From the NCBI GenBank assembly GCA_963736005.1, contig CAVTNB010000003.1:384001-448000 (forward strand): a stretch of DNA of 64,000 nucleotides, in the 5' to 3' direction. The first letter of the stretch is position 1; the number at the start of each line of letters is the position of its first letter. This DNA comes from an uncultured Pseudomonadota bacterium. Lineage in GTDB: Bacteria > Vulcanimicrobiota > Vulcanimicrobiia > Eremiobacterales > Eremiobacteraceae. This document shows, one piece after another, positions 1,178 through 8,808 of the stretch. The notes under the pieces are model-generated. The model made no database searches and was not told where the DNA came from. It was given only the letters and a program-made list of their open reading frames with translations. Position numbers and translations under genes: made by a program.

Positions 1178-1812
1178 GTTTGTTGCACGATGAAGGGGTT
1201 CGAGCGTCGTTCGTTGCCGATCGTTGTTTGCGGACCGTGGCCTGGAATGACGGTGACATTGTCTTCGAAGGCAAGGAGCTTGGAGCGGATGGACTGCATG
1301 ATCTGGGTGAACGAACCACCCCATAAATCCGTTCGTCCTATGCCGCCGGCGAAGAGCGTGTCGCCCGATAAGATGATCGGCTCGCGTTCTTCGATGACAA
1401 AACTGACGCTGCCCGGCGTGTGGCCCGGCGTGTGAACGGCGCGCAGCGCGTGGCGCCCAAATTGCAGAGGTTGGCTTTCGCGAAGATAGCTGTCGACGTC
1501 CGCCGTTGTAGGCGTGGGAACGCCAAGCCACGCCGCTTGCTCGGCGATGTTTTTGTAAAGAGGTATGTCGGCCTCGTGCATCATGATCGGCGCGCCGGTC
1601 CGCTCCTTGAGATCGGCAAGTGCTGCAACGTGATCGATATGTGCATGCGTTGCGACAATCGCGGCGAGCTTTAGATCGTGCTTGCGCAGGGCTTGATAGA
1701 TGTTTTCCACGTCACCCCCCGGATCCACCACAATCCCTGTTTTTGTCGCTTCATCGCCCAGAATGATGCAGTTGCAGGCTATCGGACCGACGGGGAAATA
1801 TCGCAAAATCAT
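1174..1812 (-). CDS. MBL-fold metallo-hydrolase (glyoxalase II/YcbL-like)
   Basis: THAHIDH, HTPGHTPG, GDTLF, PGHG motifs; start placed at ATG 1812. Confidence 0.9.
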   Translation of the reverse strand: MILRYFPVGPIACNCIILGDEATKTGIVVDPGGDVENIYQALRKHDLKLAAIVATHAHIDHVAALADLKERTGAPIMMHEADIPLYKNIAEQAAWLGVPTPTTADVDSYLRESQPLQFGRHALRAVHTPGHTPGSVSFVIEEREPIILSGDTLFAGGIGRTDLWGGSFTQIMQSIRSKLLAFEDNVTVIPGHGPQTTIGNERRSNPFIVQQT

Positions 1813-1915
1813 ATGCGGCTGCAAGCTTAGTGCGCGTTGCAAAGCCACCCTGCCCGCGGGCTCGGAGGTTTGCGGGTACGGCCCTGTCAAAACGCACATT
1901 GTTTTGGACGCTCAC

Positions 1916-3013
1916 ATGATACGCACGGTTGCAAGCGGCCTCGATCGCAAGCTTTTGGATTTCATCTCTAGTCCGGATGCCGGCGAGGCCGAATTCGAGC
2001 AGCTGGCGCTGGAGCTGTTTGCCTACCAGTACTCGGCAAATCAACCATATCGCAATCTGTGCGATCAACGCAACCGCACGCCGGAGCTCGTTCGCCGCTG
2101 GACCCACATTCCCGCGCTCTCAGCAGCGTCCTTCGCCGACGCTCGCATCGCTTGCTTTCCGCCCGAGCGCGCGCGCTTGCGTTTCGTTTCCAGCGGCACA
2201 ACGAGCGAGGGAGAGCGAGCGTCGGTGCACGAGCTTGAGAACGCCGTGCTGTACGATGCTTCGCTTGCGAATCATTTCCGGCGATGCGTTCTGCCAGATC
2301 GCGAAAAGATCGAGATGCTGCTGCTCTCCCCTTCCTTTGAAGACGCGCCTCAGTCGTCGCTTGCCTACATGCTTTCCCGCCTCTACGAACGATACGCAAG
2401 CGGCGGTGACTTCTTCGTTCGGCACGGCAGTCTCGACTCGCAGGGGATCGCCAGCACGTTGCGCTCGGCTCGCGAGCCCGTGCTCCTTTTCGGCACGGCA
2501 TTTGCCTTCGTTCATTTCTTCGACTATTGCGACGCCGCTCGCCTCAAGTTCCAGGTTCCCCCGGGTAGTCGCATCGTCGAAACAGGCGGCTTCAAGGGAA
2601 AATCTCGATCGATCGAACGAGATGAATTTCATCGGGTACTCTCGTCGACATTTGGCATTTCGCCAGAGTGGTGCATTTCCGAGTACGGCATGTGCGAGCT
2701 CGGCAGTCAATGGTATGACGCGAGTCTGAGCGACAAGCTCGCGGGTCGTCCGCCGCGCCTGGCGTTCAAAGTCGGGCCCCATTGGACTCGGCACCTGGTC
2801 GTCGATCCTGTTAGCGCGGAGCCGCTGCCCGAAGGCTCCGTAGGATTGCTCCAAGTATTCGATTTGAGCAATCGAGGATCGGTGGCAGCAGTGCTCACAG
2901 GCGATCTGGTCAGGGGCGAAGGCGAGGGCTTTACGTACGTAAGCCGCTCGCAGGCCGCTCCGCCAAAGGGTTGCAGCATCACCGTCGATTCGATGCTTCG
3001 GTCTCATGCCTAA
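1916..3013 (+). CDS. LuxE-like acyl-protein synthetase / acyl ligase
   Basis: F-SSGTT, ETGGFKG, SEYGMCEL-SQ, DLSN, terminal KGCS motif; start placed at ATG 1916. Confidence 0.85.
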   Translation: MIRTVASGLDRKLLDFISSPDAGEAEFEQLALELFAYQYSANQPYRNLCDQRNRTPELVRRWTHIPALSAASFADARIACFPPERARLRFVSSGTTSEGERASVHELENAVLYDASLANHFRRCVLPDREKIEMLLLSPSFEDAPQSSLAYMLSRLYERYASGGDFFVRHGSLDSQGIASTLRSAREPVLLFGTAFAFVHFFDYCDAARLKFQVPPGSRIVETGGFKGKSRSIERDEFHRVLSSTFGISPEWCISEYGMCELGSQWYDASLSDKLAGRPPRLAFKVGPHWTRHLVVDPVSAEPLPEGSVGLLQVFDLSNRGSVAAVLTGDLVRGEGEGFTYVSRSQAAPPKGCSITVDSMLRSHA

Positions 3014-4211
3014 CGCCCAACCAATTGCCAGTGCCCGCACAACGGCGCTGTTGGCAGGAGCGGCGCAATGGCGCCATCGGAATTCCCACGTCCGCATCGC
3101 AGCGCGCGAAGCGCTGCGCGACGGGGAGTGGCCTGCCCAAGTCGTCGAGCTGGCACTCGACAACGTCCTGCTCGATGACCAAGTGCTGAGCGAATACGGC
3201 AGCGGACCTGGCAGCAGCGGACTCTGTAGCAGTGGACCTGTAGTGGGCGACTGTCAAGTCGCCCGCCGAAACTCAATGCTTGCCATCCTCCCAGGCAACG
3301 TCTTGGGCCCGGCGATTGCCACGGCATATTGCGCCGCCGCGGCGGGCGCGACCATCATGCTCAAGTCTTCGAGCCGAGAACTGTGCCTTGCGAATATCGT
3401 CGCAGAACAATTCGAATCGCTCGGTCCGCCAATCGCAGGCACGCTGAAGGCGCTGCGATGGACCGGAGGTGACGAGGATTTCGAATCTAAGATTTTTCCG
3501 CTAGCTTCCCGGATTATCGTTTTTGGCGACGACGCAACAATCGCCGACGTCAAGCGTCGTGCCCCCAGCAACGTCACCGTTGTGGGGTACGGCAGCGCCT
3601 ACAGCCTCGGCTACGTTCCGGCCGGCAGCGACATGGCTGCTGCTGCCAAGGCCGCCGCAACGGACGTCGCATTGTTCGATCAGCGTGGATGCCTCTCACC
3701 GCAAACGATCTATGTCGAGGGCGACGATTCAAAGGCGATCCTGTTCGCGCATGCGTTGAGCGGCGCTCTGGCCCGGGTTGGCCGTGCTCTTCCGCGTGGG
3801 CAGGCGGGCGGCGCCGAAAAGGCGGCGGTCGCGGAGTTCATACGGCGGCTCATGGTGAGAGCACTCGCTCCCAAGACGCATGCTCTCGACACGGTGATCG
3901 TCGGACCCGATATTGATGGAATCCCCGAATTTGTCGTTGGTGCTGAAGCGTTCTCCGCGCCGACGTGCGCCGGATTCGGAAGAATCGTGGTGGTGAAGCC
4001 GGTCCACAGCCCCTCCGACGCTGCTGGAGCTGCAAAGACCTTGGGTCATCGTCTGGACTCGATCGGCGTCGCTTCGGCGTTGAGCCCGCAACTCCGCGGC
4101 GCATTCGCCAACTGCGGTGCGTCCCGCCTTTGCTCGCTGGGAGAGATGCAGCGTCCGCCACTTGGCTATCGCCCGAAGATATCGGACTTCGCGCTCGAGG
4201 ACTCCGAATGA
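3006..4211 (+). CDS. LuxC-like acyl-CoA reductase
   Basis: PGNV, KSSS, FGDD-TI, DVALFDQRGCLSPQ catalytic-Cys motif, GEMQ-P; overlaps luxE-like stop. Confidence 0.85.
   Translation: MPNAQPIASARTTALLAGAAQWRHRNSHVRIAAREALRDGEWPAQVVELALDNVLLDDQVLSEYGSGPGSSGLCSSGPVVGDCQVARRNSMLAILPGNVLGPAIATAYCAAAAGATIMLKSSSRELCLANIVAEQFESLGPPIAGTLKALRWTGGDEDFESKIFPLASRIIVFGDDATIADVKRRAPSNVTVVGYGSAYSLGYVPAGSDMAAAAKAAATDVALFDQRGCLSPQTIYVEGDDSKAILFAHALSGALARVGRALPRGQAGGAEKAAVAEFIRRLMVRALAPKTHALDTVIVGPDIDGIPEFVVGAEAFSAPTCAGFGRIVVVKPVHSPSDAAGAAKTLGHRLDSIGVASALSPQLRGAFANCGASRLCSLGEMQRPPLGYRPKISDFALEDSE
3198..3264 (+). repeat. REP-derived segment inside luxC-like CDS (three family-A half-sites plus one full family-D REP)
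   Basis: GGCAGCGGACCT, GGCAGCAGCGGACTCT, GTAGCAGTGGACCT, GTAGTGGGCGACTGTCAAGTCGCCC; the last matches 42066-42085 and 49074-49098. Confidence 0.75.
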
Positions 4212-5572
4212 GCGCTCGAACGTTCGGAACGCAACCGGGCAAGATCAAAGTCAAGCCGCCAGGTCCAAAGAGTCGGCGTCTGACCGTGGAGCTGCGTCGC
4301 TACGAAAGCCGCAACGTCACCTTCGTTAACAAAGACTTTCCTATCTTTTTCTCCCAAGCAGCCGGTGCGAATGTCGTTGACGTTGACGAGAACGTTTACG
4401 TGGACCTCACCGGCTTTTTTGGCGTGGCGGCGACAGGCCACAGCAACGAGCGCGTGGCCGACGCGATTGGGAACCAAGCTCATCGCTTGCTCCATGGCAT
4501 GGGCGATGTGTATCCGACGGAGAGCAAAGTTGCGCTGGCGCGCGAGCTGTGCAAACTGACGCCGGGCAAAGGGAACAAGCGGGTCATCTTTGCCTCAACC
4601 GGGGCTGAGGCAGTTGAATCCGCGTTGAAGACAGCGGCGATTGCCACCGGCAAGCCCGGTGTCTTGTGTTTCACGGGTGCGTACCACGGCCTCACCTACG
4701 GGGCGCTTTCGGTTACGGACCGGGATTTGTTCCGCGCTCCGTTCTCCGATCAGCTCGGCCATTTCAGCCACAGAGTGGACTTTCCGTATTGTTACCGCTG
4801 CCCGCTGGGGCTCCGGTATCCATCGTGTAAGGTTGCGTGCCTTGACTTCGTTCGCAGCGCGCTCGAAAGGTTGGGCCCTTCTGAGATCGGAGCGGTCATC
4901 GTTGAGCCCATGCAAGGGCGGGGTGGGGAGATTCCTGCGCCGGACCAATGGCTACAAGAGCTGCGAACGTTCTGCGACGAGCAAGGCCTGCTGCTCATCT
5001 GCGACGAGATTTTCTCCGGGTTTGGACGTACCGGACGCTGGTTTGCCTGCGAACACGCCGGTATCGTGCCGGACATCATCTGTGTCGGCAAAGGCCTCTC
5101 ATCTGGATTTCCGATCTCCGCCTGCATCGGTAAGGCGGAGATCATGGATCGTTGGCCCGCATCGGAAGGCGAGGCAATACACACGAGCACGTTCCTCGGG
5201 CATCCTACCGGCTGCATGGCGGCGCTCGCGTCGATTGCAGAAGTGCAAGAACACAGACTCGTTGCACGAGCAGCAAAACTCGAGGGATCCGTGCGCGAGA
5301 TGCTTGTGAAGCTACAGAAAGAAAGCAAGGGGAAAATTGGCGATGTGCGCGGGCTCGGGCTCATGTGGGGGCTCGAGTGCATCAAGCGCGATGGCTCGCC
5401 CGATAAGGATCTCGCCCTCCACGTCCTGCGGGATGCGATGCAGCAGGGTGTGCTTATCTTGACCAGCGGACCTCAGGGCAACGTTCTGTCAATAACCCCT
5501 CCGCTTGTCATCACGACGGATCAGCTCGCGTTTGCGATCGACATCCTTGCAAATGCAATCAAAAAGGCCTGA
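4208..5572 (+). CDS. Class III PLP-dependent aminotransferase (GabT/ArgD family)
   Basis: GAEAVE-ALK, YHG, EPMQG-GG, DEI-SGFGRTG, GKGL; ATGA-coupled to luxC-like gene. Confidence 0.92.
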   Translation: MSARTFGTQPGKIKVKPPGPKSRRLTVELRRYESRNVTFVNKDFPIFFSQAAGANVVDVDENVYVDLTGFFGVAATGHSNERVADAIGNQAHRLLHGMGDVYPTESKVALARELCKLTPGKGNKRVIFASTGAEAVESALKTAAIATGKPGVLCFTGAYHGLTYGALSVTDRDLFRAPFSDQLGHFSHRVDFPYCYRCPLGLRYPSCKVACLDFVRSALERLGPSEIGAVIVEPMQGRGGEIPAPDQWLQELRTFCDEQGLLLICDEIFSGFGRTGRWFACEHAGIVPDIICVGKGLSSGFPISACIGKAEIMDRWPASEGEAIHTSTFLGHPTGCMAALASIAEVQEHRLVARAAKLEGSVREMLVKLQKESKGKIGDVRGLGLMWGLECIKRDGSPDKDLALHVLRDAMQQGVLILTSGPQGNVLSITPPLVITTDQLAFAIDILANAIKKA

Positions 5573-5582
5573 GCACTCAGCG

Positions 5583-5611
5583 TTATCCACAACAATCAAA
5601 TGCTATCCACA
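5583..5611 (+). promoter_or_regulatory. Two tandem DnaA boxes
   Basis: TTATCCACA at 5583-5591 (perfect) and CTATCCACA at 5603-5611 (1 mismatch), same orientation, 20 bp apart. Confidence 0.65.
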
Positions 5612-5641
5612 ATTTTCTTTCAAAAGCGAACAACCGTTCAC

Positions 5642-5670
5642 TTGCACAATGGGAGTGCATTGAGTATACT
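5642..5670 (+). promoter_or_regulatory. Sigma70-type promoter
   Basis: -35 TTGCAC (5642-5647), 17-bp spacer, -10 TATACT (5665-5670) in a locally AT-rich tract. Confidence 0.75.
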
Positions 5671-5676
5671 GCCACT

Positions 5677-5927
5677 ACACCGACCGCGGTGCCGAGTGAA
5701 GTCAGCAACAACGGATGCCACGATTCGAAGCGTGGAGAGCTGAAGTCCTCGGAGATGGTACCCCTACCGTTGGGGACCCGGCTCACGCTGGGGGATGGCT
5801 CTGGGGATCGCGTCCCAGTTAAGCCCTACAACCGAACCTACTGACTAGAGAGTAAGGATCGGAAGGTACGGCGAAAATGTCATCGACCTAACAGTCAACG
5901 ACCGAGCTCCGCTCGGTCGTTACTGTT
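5677..5927 (+). ncRNA. Putative structured non-coding RNA, family not recognised
   Basis: Lies between a promoter and a long hairpin in the gap between convergent genes; no credible ORF; several helices can be drawn by eye (see findings). Confidence 0.7.
5890..5927. terminator. Long hairpin, probable bidirectional terminator
   Basis: AACAGT-C-AACGACCGAGC-TCC-GCTCGGTCGTT-ACTGTT inverted repeat between convergent units; weak U-tract. Confidence 0.65.
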
Positions 5928-5939
5928 GTGGGGGTCCTT

Positions 5940-7391
5940 TTAGCGTGAATCTACCCGGAACGTCAGTGTTGCCTGGCGTCCGGCCGCCACCGGAATCATC
6001 CACACAACCGTTGAGCTCGAGGTCTTTTGGTGGGGCAGCGTCTCACTTGCGATCTGCCACAGGCCGCTGAGCTGCTCCTCATAGCGCAACACGATCGGCT
6101 TACTTTTGGCATTGCTGACCGTCACGCGATAGTCGGTGACATATTCAGTTCTATTGTAGGGATGTGGGATCTCTTGGTAATTCGTTTGAACGCGGCTCAC
6201 GTGAACGTCAAATGATGGACCGAGGTCGAGCTGCACGTGCGCTTTGCGGGGCGTGTTGTCAATGGCATTTTCGCCGATGAAGACTGGTTCGCCGGACTCA
6301 TCGTTTTTGTACATATGAAAGACCCCACTGGGTAGGGGCACGCCGAGCCCGTGTCCATCGTTGTCAAATTCAAGCGTCACCTCAACCGGGACCGCTTGCT
6401 CCGAGCCCTGGCTTTGAAAGTCGTTGGCGCTTACCGATGATGAGAAGACCTGTTGCACGGGGACCTCGCGAGCAAAAAGCAAGAGGGTTTGCTTGGTCTC
6501 ACCGGTTCGCAGCGAGGTCCGCCGGGGCAGACTGTATTCGTAAAATTCAAAGACCGCCTGGCGTGTGGCACGATTGGTGTTAGCTGCGTAGACGTCAGCG
6601 GCGGCCTGCGCGCGCACCGCACCAAGCATTTTCACTTCACCTGGCTGCGCGCGCTGCACGCTCCCGGCGACGAGCCGAACGGTTGCATCGTCAAAGTCCA
6701 TGCCGCTGTCGTTGTGCAAAGTGATGAAGGCGTCGATGTCGAGATGGTCGCCTCCGGCGTTGAGCCTGGCCACATAGTCGGCGGCCCAAGACAGGCCACT
6801 TGTGAGGTACCCGAGGGCGATGGGTCGTTGTGCGGCGGTTGGACTTTCAAAATCAGCCAAGAAATCGGGCGTCAGTCGAATGATTGGCAGCGTCGCATAC
6901 ACGATGCGGGAATTGGGCGGCAAGCTCGTTTCGAAGCGATCCTTGAACTTGAGGATCGGGCCGCTCGCACTGATCACCACCGCCGTCTCTTTTGTCTCCT
7001 TCCCCGTCATTGGTTCGTCGTGGATAACGGTCACCGTGTGGCCGACAGCTCGCGCAAAAATCGCGTCTGGCGAAAGAACAGCGGTTTCAAAATTCTGCTC
7101 CTGCACAAGGATCGGCACCTGGGTGCCGAGATCCGAAAGAAAGGCTGTCTCTGGTGACATCTGCGGTGAGACGTCGTCAAAAACGATTCGATTCTCGCCC
7201 CGCTCGACATTGAGGAGCCTGACATCCCGAACAAGTGCGAAGTCCCCGTAGACGGTGACCGTCAGGGATTGACGTTGCGCTGCGCTCGTGTGGCGTTCGG
7301 GAATCACAGCGAGCGCGCGCGGTGCATTGACAAGCGACGCTACCATCGCGCTCATAATCGAGAGGAGCACAAACACCGCTGTCCTCTTCAT
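5940..7391 (-). CDS. Secreted DUF4139/DUF4140-domain protein
   Basis: Signal peptide after GAGGAGG RBS; VTVY-FALVRDVR, YLTSGLSWAADY, GVPLPSG patterns. Confidence 0.8.
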   Translation of the reverse strand: MKRTAVFVLLSIMSAMVASLVNAPRALAVIPERHTSAAQRQSLTVTVYGDFALVRDVRLLNVERGENRIVFDDVSPQMSPETAFLSDLGTQVPILVQEQNFETAVLSPDAIFARAVGHTVTVIHDEPMTGKETKETAVVISASGPILKFKDRFETSLPPNSRIVYATLPIIRLTPDFLADFESPTAAQRPIALGYLTSGLSWAADYVARLNAGGDHLDIDAFITLHNDSGMDFDDATVRLVAGSVQRAQPGEVKMLGAVRAQAAADVYAANTNRATRQAVFEFYEYSLPRRTSLRTGETKQTLLLFAREVPVQQVFSSSVSANDFQSQGSEQAVPVEVTLEFDNDGHGLGVPLPSGVFHMYKNDESGEPVFIGENAIDNTPRKAHVQLDLGPSFDVHVSRVQTNYQEIPHPYNRTEYVTDYRVTVSNAKSKPIVLRYEEQLSGLWQIASETLPHQKTSSSTVVWMIPVAAGRQATLTFRVDSR

Positions 7392-7539
7392 ACAAAATCC
7401 TCCTCGGCCAATACGCAGGCGAAGGGCTGTCAAATGACGAGCTTCGCGGCTCCCTTGGGCCGTCCTTGGTCGTCGCTCGGTGCTCTTTTCGTCGAACCCG
7501 TGGCACGGAACTTGTCGTATCCGCGACAAACAATCGCGC

Positions 7540-8808
7540 GTGGCGACGACGACAGAACAAAACCCATCGCAAGAGAGCGAATCGCCGCCGGGGGCGCAGC
7601 GCTGGGGCGCGCTGGCGTACCGAGAGTACCGGCTGCTGTGGATCGGGCTCATCATCTCCAACACCGGCAGTTGGATGGCTACTTTAGCTCAAGGATGGCT
7701 TGTCGTTGAATTGGCGCCGCGCCCGGCCTTGGCGCCGTTTTACCTTGGCATCATCGGCTTCACCCGCGCCATCCCCGCTCTGTTGCTGTCCGGAGTGGCG
7801 GGCACGATCGCCGACCGAGTCGACCGGCGACGCCTCTTAATCGTCAGTCAGGTCGTCCTTGGACTCGCTGCCCTCGCGCTGGCCATTTTGGCACAGACGC
7901 GTACGGTACAAATATGGCAGGTCATCCTGCTCGCCGGCTTGTCCGCGTGTGCGCTCACCTTTGACGCGCCCACGAGGCAATCGATGGTGCCCCTTCTTGT
8001 TGGACCACGCGAGCTGATGAATGCGATCGGACTCAACTCCGCCGCCTTTAATGGACCGGGCATCATCGGCCCAGCCATCGGCGGAATTTTGGTGAGTACC
8101 GTGGGCGTCAGCGCCACATTCTATCTCAACGCACTTTCATATGTCGCGGTTATTTTTGCGCTCTTGCTCATGACTCCCAAGCCGCCCGTACAGGTTGCCA
8201 AGCGATTGGGTCTGTGGGAAGAACTCGTCGATGGGTTGCGTTACGTGCGCGGGCAGCCTGCAATTCTTGCGCTCTTCTTGCTCGCGCTGCTCGTCTCAAT
8301 TGTGGGGCGGCCTTACATACAGCTGCTGCCCGCTTTTGTGAAAGCGACGATTCAGGGTGGGCCGGATACCCTCGGTGTGCTCATGGCGGGATCCGGGGTT
8401 GGCGCGTTGGCAGGTTCGATTGCCGTCGCATTCATCGGAACTCGCCATCACCGAGGACGGATCGCGACTGCTTGTGCGACGCTCGCGGGGGTGGCGCTCT
8501 TTGGATTCTCGCTGACGAAGACGACGCTGATCGCAGCAAGCGTGCTCGTTGCGCTCGGAGCAAGCATCAATCTGTTTATGGGCATGACCAACACCTTGCT
8601 GCAGCTTCACACCGCCCTTGAAATGCGCGGTCGCGTGATGGCGCTCTACACGATGATCTTTTTGGGCTTCATGCCCTTGGGCTCGTGGCTGCTTGGCTCG
8701 ATCGCGACGCTGACGACCTTGCCGCTGACCCTGGCGGCTGCCGGCATTCTCGTTGCGCTAGCCGGGCTCGCGGTGAGTCGCCTTCCGGGCCCTCGCGACC
8801 TGGCATAA
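7540..8808 (+). CDS. MFS transporter (MFS_3/EntS-like)
   Basis: About 12 hydrophobic segments, GTIADRVDRRRLL motif A, MRGRVMA; start uncertain. Confidence 0.88.
   Translation: MATTTEQNPSQESESPPGAQRWGALAYREYRLLWIGLIISNTGSWMATLAQGWLVVELAPRPALAPFYLGIIGFTRAIPALLLSGVAGTIADRVDRRRLLIVSQVVLGLAALALAILAQTRTVQIWQVILLAGLSACALTFDAPTRQSMVPLLVGPRELMNAIGLNSAAFNGPGIIGPAIGGILVSTVGVSATFYLNALSYVAVIFALLLMTPKPPVQVAKRLGLWEELVDGLRYVRGQPAILALFLLALLVSIVGRPYIQLLPAFVKATIQGGPDTLGVLMAGSGVGALAGSIAVAFIGTRHHRGRIATACATLAGVALFGFSLTKTTLIAASVLVALGASINLFMGMTNTLLQLHTALEMRGRVMALYTMIFLGFMPLGSWLLGSIATLTTLPLTLAAAGILVALAGLAVSRLPGPRDLA

Follow-up and report, generated by a model that had tools for sequence, protein, structure and literature searches.

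A family-specific, highly structured RNA gene of an apparently undescribed class in the Eremiobacteraceae

The window, a stretch of 64,000 nucleotides from an uncultured bacterium of the family Eremiobacteraceae in the candidate phylum Eremiobacterota, contains a 367-bp gap between two convergent genes, and this locus raises the question of whether the gap holds an RNA gene in its own right and how such an RNA would act. The aminotransferase gene on the left ends at 5572 on the + strand and the DUF4139 gene, which runs on the opposite strand, has its end at 5940, in agreement with the ~365 bp given in the initial annotation of this DNA. The promoter (TTGCAC-17-TATACT) and the long terminal hairpin that the same annotation had proposed were both found in the gap. 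The elements that delimit the RNA gene are the following:

5642-5647, + strand: -35 hexamer TTGCAC, read from the sequence; TTG is present here in all 29 homologues
5665-5670, + strand: -10 hexamer TATACT, read from the sequence; TATACT in 28 of 29 homologues, TATGAT in one
5677-5927, + strand: RNA gene of ~250 nt (about 251), its 5' end placed from the promoter and its 3' end from the hairpin
5890-5907 with 5911-5927, + strand: terminal hairpin of ~17 bp, -24.8 kcal/mol, 6 covarying pairs

The promoter spacer measures 17 nt in this genome, and across the 29 homologues, in which the -10 and the TTG are near-invariant, it is 17 nt (27 sequences) or 18 nt (2 sequences). A promoter scan lists the site as TGCACA-16-TATACT with a score of 9/12. 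Six nucleotides past the -10, at 5677, the conserved block opens with ACACCGAC, and the covariance model R1 matched the locus from 5677 to 5931 with 260 bits. The terminal hairpin is present as claimed, at 5890-5927, but its role as a terminator is less straightforward. In this genome it is followed by GTGGGGG instead of a T run, which is why a terminator scan of the locus did not list it; most relatives have 1-3 T at this place. In this genome the hairpin is not a textbook terminator.

The locus did not correspond to a catalogued RNA. Rfam 15 comprises 4227 models, including raiA, OLE, ROOL, GOLLD, HEARO, T-box and all riboswitches, and none of them matched positions 4500-7000 at E<=1. The sole match at E<=10 on 5670-5935 was the snoRNA GlsR17, which was dismissed as chance (12.8 bits against a threshold of 84); SorX, the sole match when seven homologous loci were compared with Rfam, was likewise rejected (22.2 against a threshold of 46.6). 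The genes for 6S, SRP, RNase P and tmRNA were located above their cut-offs elsewhere in the same genome and also in four relatives. This rules out that the locus is the genome's copy of one of them and bears out the earlier remark that no tmRNA, RNase P, 6S or canonical SRP signature is visible. A full-text literature search of a limited collection returned no paper on an RNA of Eremiobacterota/WPS-2. The signs of a mobile-element RNA of the omega, bridge or retron type were absent as well: the locus is single-copy in the window's own genome, its synteny between aminotransferase and MFS genes is fixed, and the plasmid and phage collections that were searched gave no match to the RNA. The lack of a credible Rfam match supports the undescribed class proposed in the initial annotation.

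A coding function of the gap was also considered. A small protein or leader peptide, encoded by GTG 5689-5844 (51 codons) or from ATG 5754, could control the neighbouring exporter by attenuation, as leader-peptide attenuators are known for efflux genes, and an open frame with a similar peptide occurs in 12 of 29 homologues. In the other 17 the frame is broken, shifted or truncated, a count in line with the earlier statement that no credible ORF is present. GTG 5689 lacks a preceding Shine-Dalgarno motif, the three codon positions vary to similar extents (63%, 73% and 79%) with no three-base periodicity, and the substitutions preserve base pairs, not amino acids. We regard a peptide at this locus as highly improbable.

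Homologues were abundant within the family. A BLAST search over 61 relatives revealed one copy in 29 of the 31 other Eremiobacteraceae genomes, covering 10 genera with 76-98% identity, and in none of 29 genomes of two other families. R1, built from 29 sequences with 257 positions and 63 pairs, yielded across the class 29 of 31 Eremiobacteraceae genomes (f1), 1 of 116 genomes of the sister family (f2) and 0 of 3 of a third family (f3). Across the phylum it matched 9 of 9 Eremiobacteraceae genomes and none of 70 genomes in 19 further families. The single sister-family match (G095, 19.5 bits, E 0.005) was weak and was treated as noise. The two family genomes that gave no match, G028 and G031, are 55% and 72% complete, and the G028 contig that carries the luxC-like neighbour stops at base 2681, ahead of the RNA locus. 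A pattern scan of genome contigs produced 27 matches, of which 24 were confirmed by the covariance model; the remaining three (L078, L085 and L088) were discarded as chance matches. A corresponding scan of metagenomes, which covered 24 of 64 parts of the collection, contained at least 13 model-confirmed copies among the 117 loci listed, 88-100% identical to known ones, whereas the other 104 were assigned to chance, about 40 of them being one identical unrelated sequence. The most divergent homologue among the matches listed lies on a metagenome contig of 687 nt (L233) and is 88% identical over 150 nt to that of G007; on this short contig the 140 nt 3' of the RNA resemble the end of a convergent gene and not an MFS start. 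The RNA is present in essentially every assessable Eremiobacteraceae genome and nowhere else among the genomes searched. The counts for distribution, structure and loops include the unpublished genomes G008, G011 and G013.

The + strand of the locus folds at -107.5 kcal/mol (z -3.86), a value reached by none of 200 shuffles, compared with -97.3 kcal/mol (z -2.11) for the - strand. RNAalifold applied to a MAFFT alignment gave 63 pairs, with compensatory changes at 32. A structure of 77 pairs was then assessed that comprises the RNAalifold pairs, an extension of the terminal hairpin, a candidate pseudoknot and the UCAGC/GCUGA helix of the initial annotation. Over 29 sequences these 77 proposed pairs are 94.7% paired, and compensatory change occurs at 34 of them, whereas 500 shuffles gave 18.6 +/- 2.2 and never as many; when the partners were slid by 1-3 columns, only 6-13 pairs showed compensatory change. 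Covariation and homologues, both of which the initial annotation had named as checks on an RNA gene, are in evidence. G-U pairs are frequent, as at the base of the H8 loop (28 of 29 sequences), and would become A-C if read on the other strand, so that the RNA strand is the + strand. The fold consists of a 5' domain with H1 and with H2 enclosing H3, a 3' multi-helix domain and then the terminal hairpin. All elements lie on the + strand:

5678-5691, + strand: H1 hairpin CACCG/CGGUG, invariant, overlapping the 8-nt palindrome ACCGCGGU (5683-5690)
5692-5696 with 5747-5751, + strand: H2, which encloses H3; 99.3% paired, 3 compensatory pairs
5710-5714, + strand: AACGG, candidate pseudoknot strand, complementary to CCGUU 5767-5771; invariant in 29 of 29
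5718-5723 with 5730-5735, + strand: H3 hairpin; 98.3% paired, compensatory change at 5 of 6 pairs
5724-5729, + strand: H3 loop UUCGAA with a self-complementary core
5757-5759 with 5886-5888, + strand: H4, which closes the 3' domain 5757-5888; UA-to-CG change in 5 sequences
5761-5764 with 5772-5775, + strand: H5
5767-5771, + strand: CCGUU in the H5 loop, candidate pseudoknot partner; invariant in 29 of 29
5777-5782 with 5787-5792, + strand: H6, 4 covarying pairs
5794-5798 with 5880-5884, + strand: H7, 2 covarying pairs
5801-5806 with 5813-5818, + strand: H8 hairpin, 99.4% paired
5807-5812, + strand: H8 loop AUCGCG with the self-complementary core CGCG
5823-5825 with 5869-5871, + strand: H9, 3 covarying pairs
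5828-5867, + strand: variable arm

Since H1 and the putative AACGG/CCGUU pseudoknot are invariant, neither draws support from covariation. Pairing of the H8 loop AUCGCG with a 5' CGCGGU as a second pseudoknot was rejected: variants with CAUG in the loop carry no compensating 5' change, and no other column covaries with it. The helices drawn by eye in the initial annotation fared unevenly when compared over the 29 sequences. Its local hairpins are well supported, with 100% pairing and 4 covarying pairs for CCACG/CGUGG, 100% pairing for CCCC/GGGG and CUGGG/CCCAG, and 83% pairing with 7 covarying pairs for the variable arm (CCGA.../...UCGG). The helices meant to close or enclose them were not borne out. 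Pairing in the closing stem (5685-5693 with 5865-5873) amounts to 63-80%, with zero compensatory change; UCAGC/GCUGA (65% paired), GUCCUC/GGGGAU (56%) and the GGCU/AGCC extension (74%) also show no compensatory change, and these unsupported helices clash with the covarying alternatives H2, H4, H7 and H9. The gap is occupied by a family-specific, highly structured non-coding RNA gene, apparently of an undescribed class.

RNA libraries were inspected for a transcript. Six metatranscriptomic runs contain part of the stretch, and four of them, from four studies, were aligned to positions 5200-6400. Each of these four has one whole contig of 182-213 nt inside the RNA, with 1-6 differences and no loose ends; such contigs give neither the ends, the strand nor the level of an RNA, the k-mer depths listed with them reflect abundance poorly, and DNA present in the libraries is a possible source:

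Run X9: contig 5680-5872, k-mer depth 234
Run X16: contig 5691-5872, k-mer depth 3.5
Run X17: contig 5696-5890, k-mer depth 11
Run X18: contig 5687-5899, k-mer depth 12

A second contig in each run has loose ends that resemble homologues of other genera. The flanks 5200-5650 and 5940-6400 are without a contig in the four runs, a missing cover that carries no meaning. The contig starts at 5680-5696 fit a transcription start near 5677, and the contigs give a weak hint of a discrete transcript. With respect to the discrete transcript of ~200-250 nt that the initial annotation had envisaged, contigs of a comparable length lie inside the RNA, but they specify neither its ends nor its strand.

How the RNA acts was approached through its neighbourhood, which is nearly constant in the family: the RNA always lies between a luxE-luxC-aminotransferase operon and the gene of a DHA3-type MFS exporter. 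The upstream gene is a class III aminotransferase (PF00202) in 29 of 30 RNA-bearing genomes, and in the 30th the contig begins within the RNA. In 25 of the 30 the exporter gene (MFS_3) follows directly downstream on the same strand; in the other five (G000, the genome of the window, with G001, G003, G004 and G019, from two genera) the convergent DUF4139 gene lies between RNA and exporter. The initial annotation had argued that no same-strand gene follows and that a cis-acting role is unlikely for this reason. That is true of this genome and four others and false for the remaining 25. Its conclusion of a trans-acting RNA agrees with the reading preferred here, but the reason given for it does not stand, and with a same-strand MFS gene in 25 of 30 genomes a cis-acting leader stays a serious rival.

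Such a leader, whether riboswitch or factor-dependent attenuator, would be transcribed together with the exporter gene from the promoter at 5642-5670, and a ligand, perhaps a product of the luxE-luxC-aminotransferase island, would set the read-through past the hairpin; in this genome a later insertion of the DUF4139 gene would have uncoupled the RNA from the exporter. Besides the gene order in the 25 genomes, the spacing in one genus (L081, L153, L184 and L232) speaks for it. Here a Shine-Dalgarno-like AAGG and a GTG follow only ~14 nt past the hairpin, which leaves no room for a separate promoter and makes the RNA the physical 5' leader of the exporter gene in that genus, where transcription of the exporter has to pass the hairpin. 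The large conserved junctions and loops resemble those of a big aptamer, short RNA contigs are also expected from a terminated leader, and the luxC-like gene of the island comes close to the RNA in family specificity, being found in 29 of 31 Eremiobacteraceae genomes (f1), 4 of 86 of the sister family (f2) and 3 of 3 of f3, and always beside the RNA where the RNA occurs. The last point permits a functional tie of the RNA to the island whether it acts as a leader or not.

Several observations argue against a leader. A conserved alternation of terminator and antiterminator was not found: in a search of 29 sequences the best partner of the 5' arm of the terminal hairpin wandered from column 6 to column 214, and the best alternative pairing reached -10 to -17 kcal/mol compared with -24 to -30 kcal/mol for the hairpin. 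The five uncoupled genomes, from two genera, have kept promoter, RNA and hairpin whole and conserved to the same degree as elsewhere; in them the RNA is 85-92% identical while the aminotransferase is 70-72% identical, a comparison that rests on three comparable genome pairs. Homologues of the MFS gene (~40% identity) are present in 37 of 41 genomes of the sister family, a count that includes the unpublished genomes G154, G158, G160, G163 and G164, and are not accompanied by the RNA there (best covariance-model score 7.5 bits over 30 loci). A motif GGA(A)CTTG is conserved ahead of the exporter start in at least two genera and suggests that the exporter has a promoter of its own. The 6S gene of this genome, described below, is built with a promoter and hairpin of the same style as the RNA. 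Finally, the self-complementary loop switches described below are not expected of an aptamer. As synteny is fixed on both sides throughout the family, linkage and independence have not been put to the test by many independent events. Overall, we consider an exporter leader a possible but doubtful explanation, whereas a free-standing stable RNA that does not act as a ligand-sensing leader has, in our judgement, an even chance of being correct.

Further features of the neighbourhood were recorded. In the window the MFS gene is called at 7480-8808 and probably starts at GTG 7541, and the DUF4139 gene on the minus strand probably starts at ATG 7393 with GAGGAGG ahead of it; the ORF calls at 7389-7545 over-extend both of these divergent genes. 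The motif GGAACTTG at ~7508-7515 recurs ahead of the MFS start in another genus and may be the -35 element of a promoter of the MFS gene. G002, the closest relative, has a 37-nt relic of the DUF4139 gene between RNA and MFS gene (L004:1827-1863, 89% identity to window positions 6179-6215), which indicates that the gene was lost there by deletion and that the direct adjacency of RNA and MFS gene is secondary in that genome. In G012 an insert of ~230 nt parts the RNA from the MFS gene (L075, minus strand, approx. 2215-2305, ~80-170 nt downstream of the RNA) and contains two direct repeats GGTTGTG(T)GACATGTTGGACCGGG. The operon upstream of the RNA in the window (1700-5572) encodes luxE-like (PF04443), luxC-like (PF05893) and class III aminotransferase proteins. 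The gene content suggests a pathway in which a fatty acid is converted to an aldehyde and then to an amine; the MFS exporter lies downstream.

A trans-acting RNA may also function by base-pairing with mRNAs. In such an sRNA a single-stranded stretch, for instance the invariant 5' 17 nt, would pair with targets and the remainder would be a scaffold. The gene's own promoter and terminal hairpin, its retention where it is uncoupled from the exporter and the constancy of its 5' end fit this explanation; ACACCGACCGCGGUGCC opens 30 of 38 sequences, with a 2-nt insertion in seven and a substitution in one. The conservation of ~12 helices over all 250 nt goes far beyond the structure of a seed-type sRNA, and when four conserved segments and the entire RNA were compared in a rough duplex scan with 150 start regions of the window, the outcome allowed no interpretation, full-length energies in such a scan not being meaningful. 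A base-pairing sRNA is therefore, in our estimation, improbable.

The loops of H3 and H8 point to another property of the RNA. Among 38 distinct sequences the core of the H8 loop is CGCG in 34 and CAUG in 4, and that of the H3 loop is UGCA in 34 and UCGA in 4. Both cores are self-complementary in every variant, single-change intermediates do not occur among the 38 sequences, and the H8 switch is not accompanied by a change in any other alignment column. Among the 187 pairs of adjacent columns that vary, seven do so solely by coupled change, and only two of these remain self-complementary, namely the centres of H3 (CG in 4, GC in 34) and H8 (GC in 34, AU in 4); the other five look like alignment shifts. 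Adjacent nucleotides are unable to pair within one chain. On a tree from the 250-nt alignment with the loop columns removed, which is short and weakly resolved, CAUG appears in G023 with G030, in G013 and in L186, which lies within the clade of another genus and whose nearest relative G017 has CGCG, so that at least two origins are apparent. UCGA is found in the window's genus and in L214. The switches between palindromes rest on approximately 3-5 events, and the change from CGCG to CAUG amounts to two CpG transitions, which counts against a reading as self-association. At the 5' end, seven of the 38 sequences carry the longer form ACCGCGCGGU of the 8-nt palindrome, a difference that could be explained by repeat slippage.

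Switching only between palindromes, as in loop L9.3 of OLE (GGCC/GAUC/AGCU) and loop L21a of GOLLD (GC/CG), is used as an argument for symmetric intermolecular kissing loops by Kretsch et al. (Nature 2025, PMC12286853). The pattern this argument builds on, adjacent loop nucleotides that covary and keep the palindrome, is displayed by both the H3 and the H8 loop. By this analogy the RNA might work as a dimer or higher oligomer, a proposal that we put forward tentatively. Its more specific form is a homo-oligomer made of RNA only, held by two kissing loops (H3 with UCGA/UGCA and H8 with CGCG/CAUG) and perhaps by the 5' palindrome as a third contact; we hold this form to be conceivable, with considerable doubt. 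Two different self-complementary loops per copy could allow the copies to join into rings, filaments or cages.

Large bacterial non-coding RNAs such as OLE, GOLLD and ROOL have sizes of roughly 580-800 nt. These 'ornate' RNAs form RNA-only homo-oligomers (Kretsch et al., Nature 2025, PMC12286853). The RNA described here shares with them a restriction to certain lineages, an elaborate fold and the lack of a known function, and it shares with OLE and GOLLD hairpin-loop centres that switch only between palindromes. It differs from all three in the absence of sequence or structure homology (Rfam negative), in its confinement to a single family and in being two to three times smaller; moreover, the three are known as oligomers, whereas the present RNA is a candidate. 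The raiA motif RNA (Rfam RF03072, about 200 nt) is usually located upstream of one particular gene and is yet regarded as a separate RNA. It resembles the present RNA in its complex fold and is abundant and of unknown function. In contrast to the raiA motif RNA, which is found in over 2700 species according to PMC12968392, our RNA matched no Rfam model and occurs in one family.

Similar to 6S and housekeeping sRNA genes, the locus is a gene standing on its own that has a conserved promoter and a terminator hairpin, and its style is like that of the genome's 6S gene in the -35 region (CTTG...), an AACG...CGUU hairpin and a short U stretch. Unlike 6S, which is a rod with a bubble, the RNA is multi-branched. 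The 6S gene of this genome (L092:1501-1686, equivalent to contig C1:1843467-1843652; 83.8 bits) has a -35 of CTTGTC and ends with a AACGGCCCGGUCG/CGACCGGGCCGUU hairpin followed by UCAU, a terminator without a long U run. Riboswitch or attenuator leaders of exporters offer the third comparison, among them guanidine-I (ykkC), which precedes efflux pumps. They share with 25 of the 30 genomes the order of promoter, folded RNA, hairpin and transporter, and differ from our RNA in that the latter lacks an antiterminator, persists where it is uncoupled and matches no Rfam family.

In the preferred reading, the promoter at 5642-5670 would yield a folded, family-specific RNA of ~250 nt that ends at the terminal hairpin and acts as a free-standing, stable molecule and not as a ligand-sensing leader. 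Its 5' and 3' domains would be joined by the invariant AACGG/CCGUU loop-loop pairing. The cores of the H3 and H8 loops may pair with their counterparts on further copies, and the resulting dimer or higher oligomer would serve as a scaffold or particle, as for the OLE and GOLLD RNAs.

If this proves true, OLE, ROOL and GOLLD would have in this RNA a small counterpart restricted to one family, and the signature of its loops bears on whether small natural RNAs self-assemble. Should the RNA instead act as leader of the exporter, it would count as a new orphan riboswitch candidate of unusual size which is tied to the luxE-luxC-aminotransferase island and points to an unknown metabolite. As the RNA is short, it can be synthesized in vitro at once and the decisive experiments are simple. 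Elaborate bacterial RNAs without a known job are rare, and every one of them to date has yielded new insight into RNA biology or structure; the present one appears to be expressed in soils and comes from a soil phylum with almost no experimental genetics.
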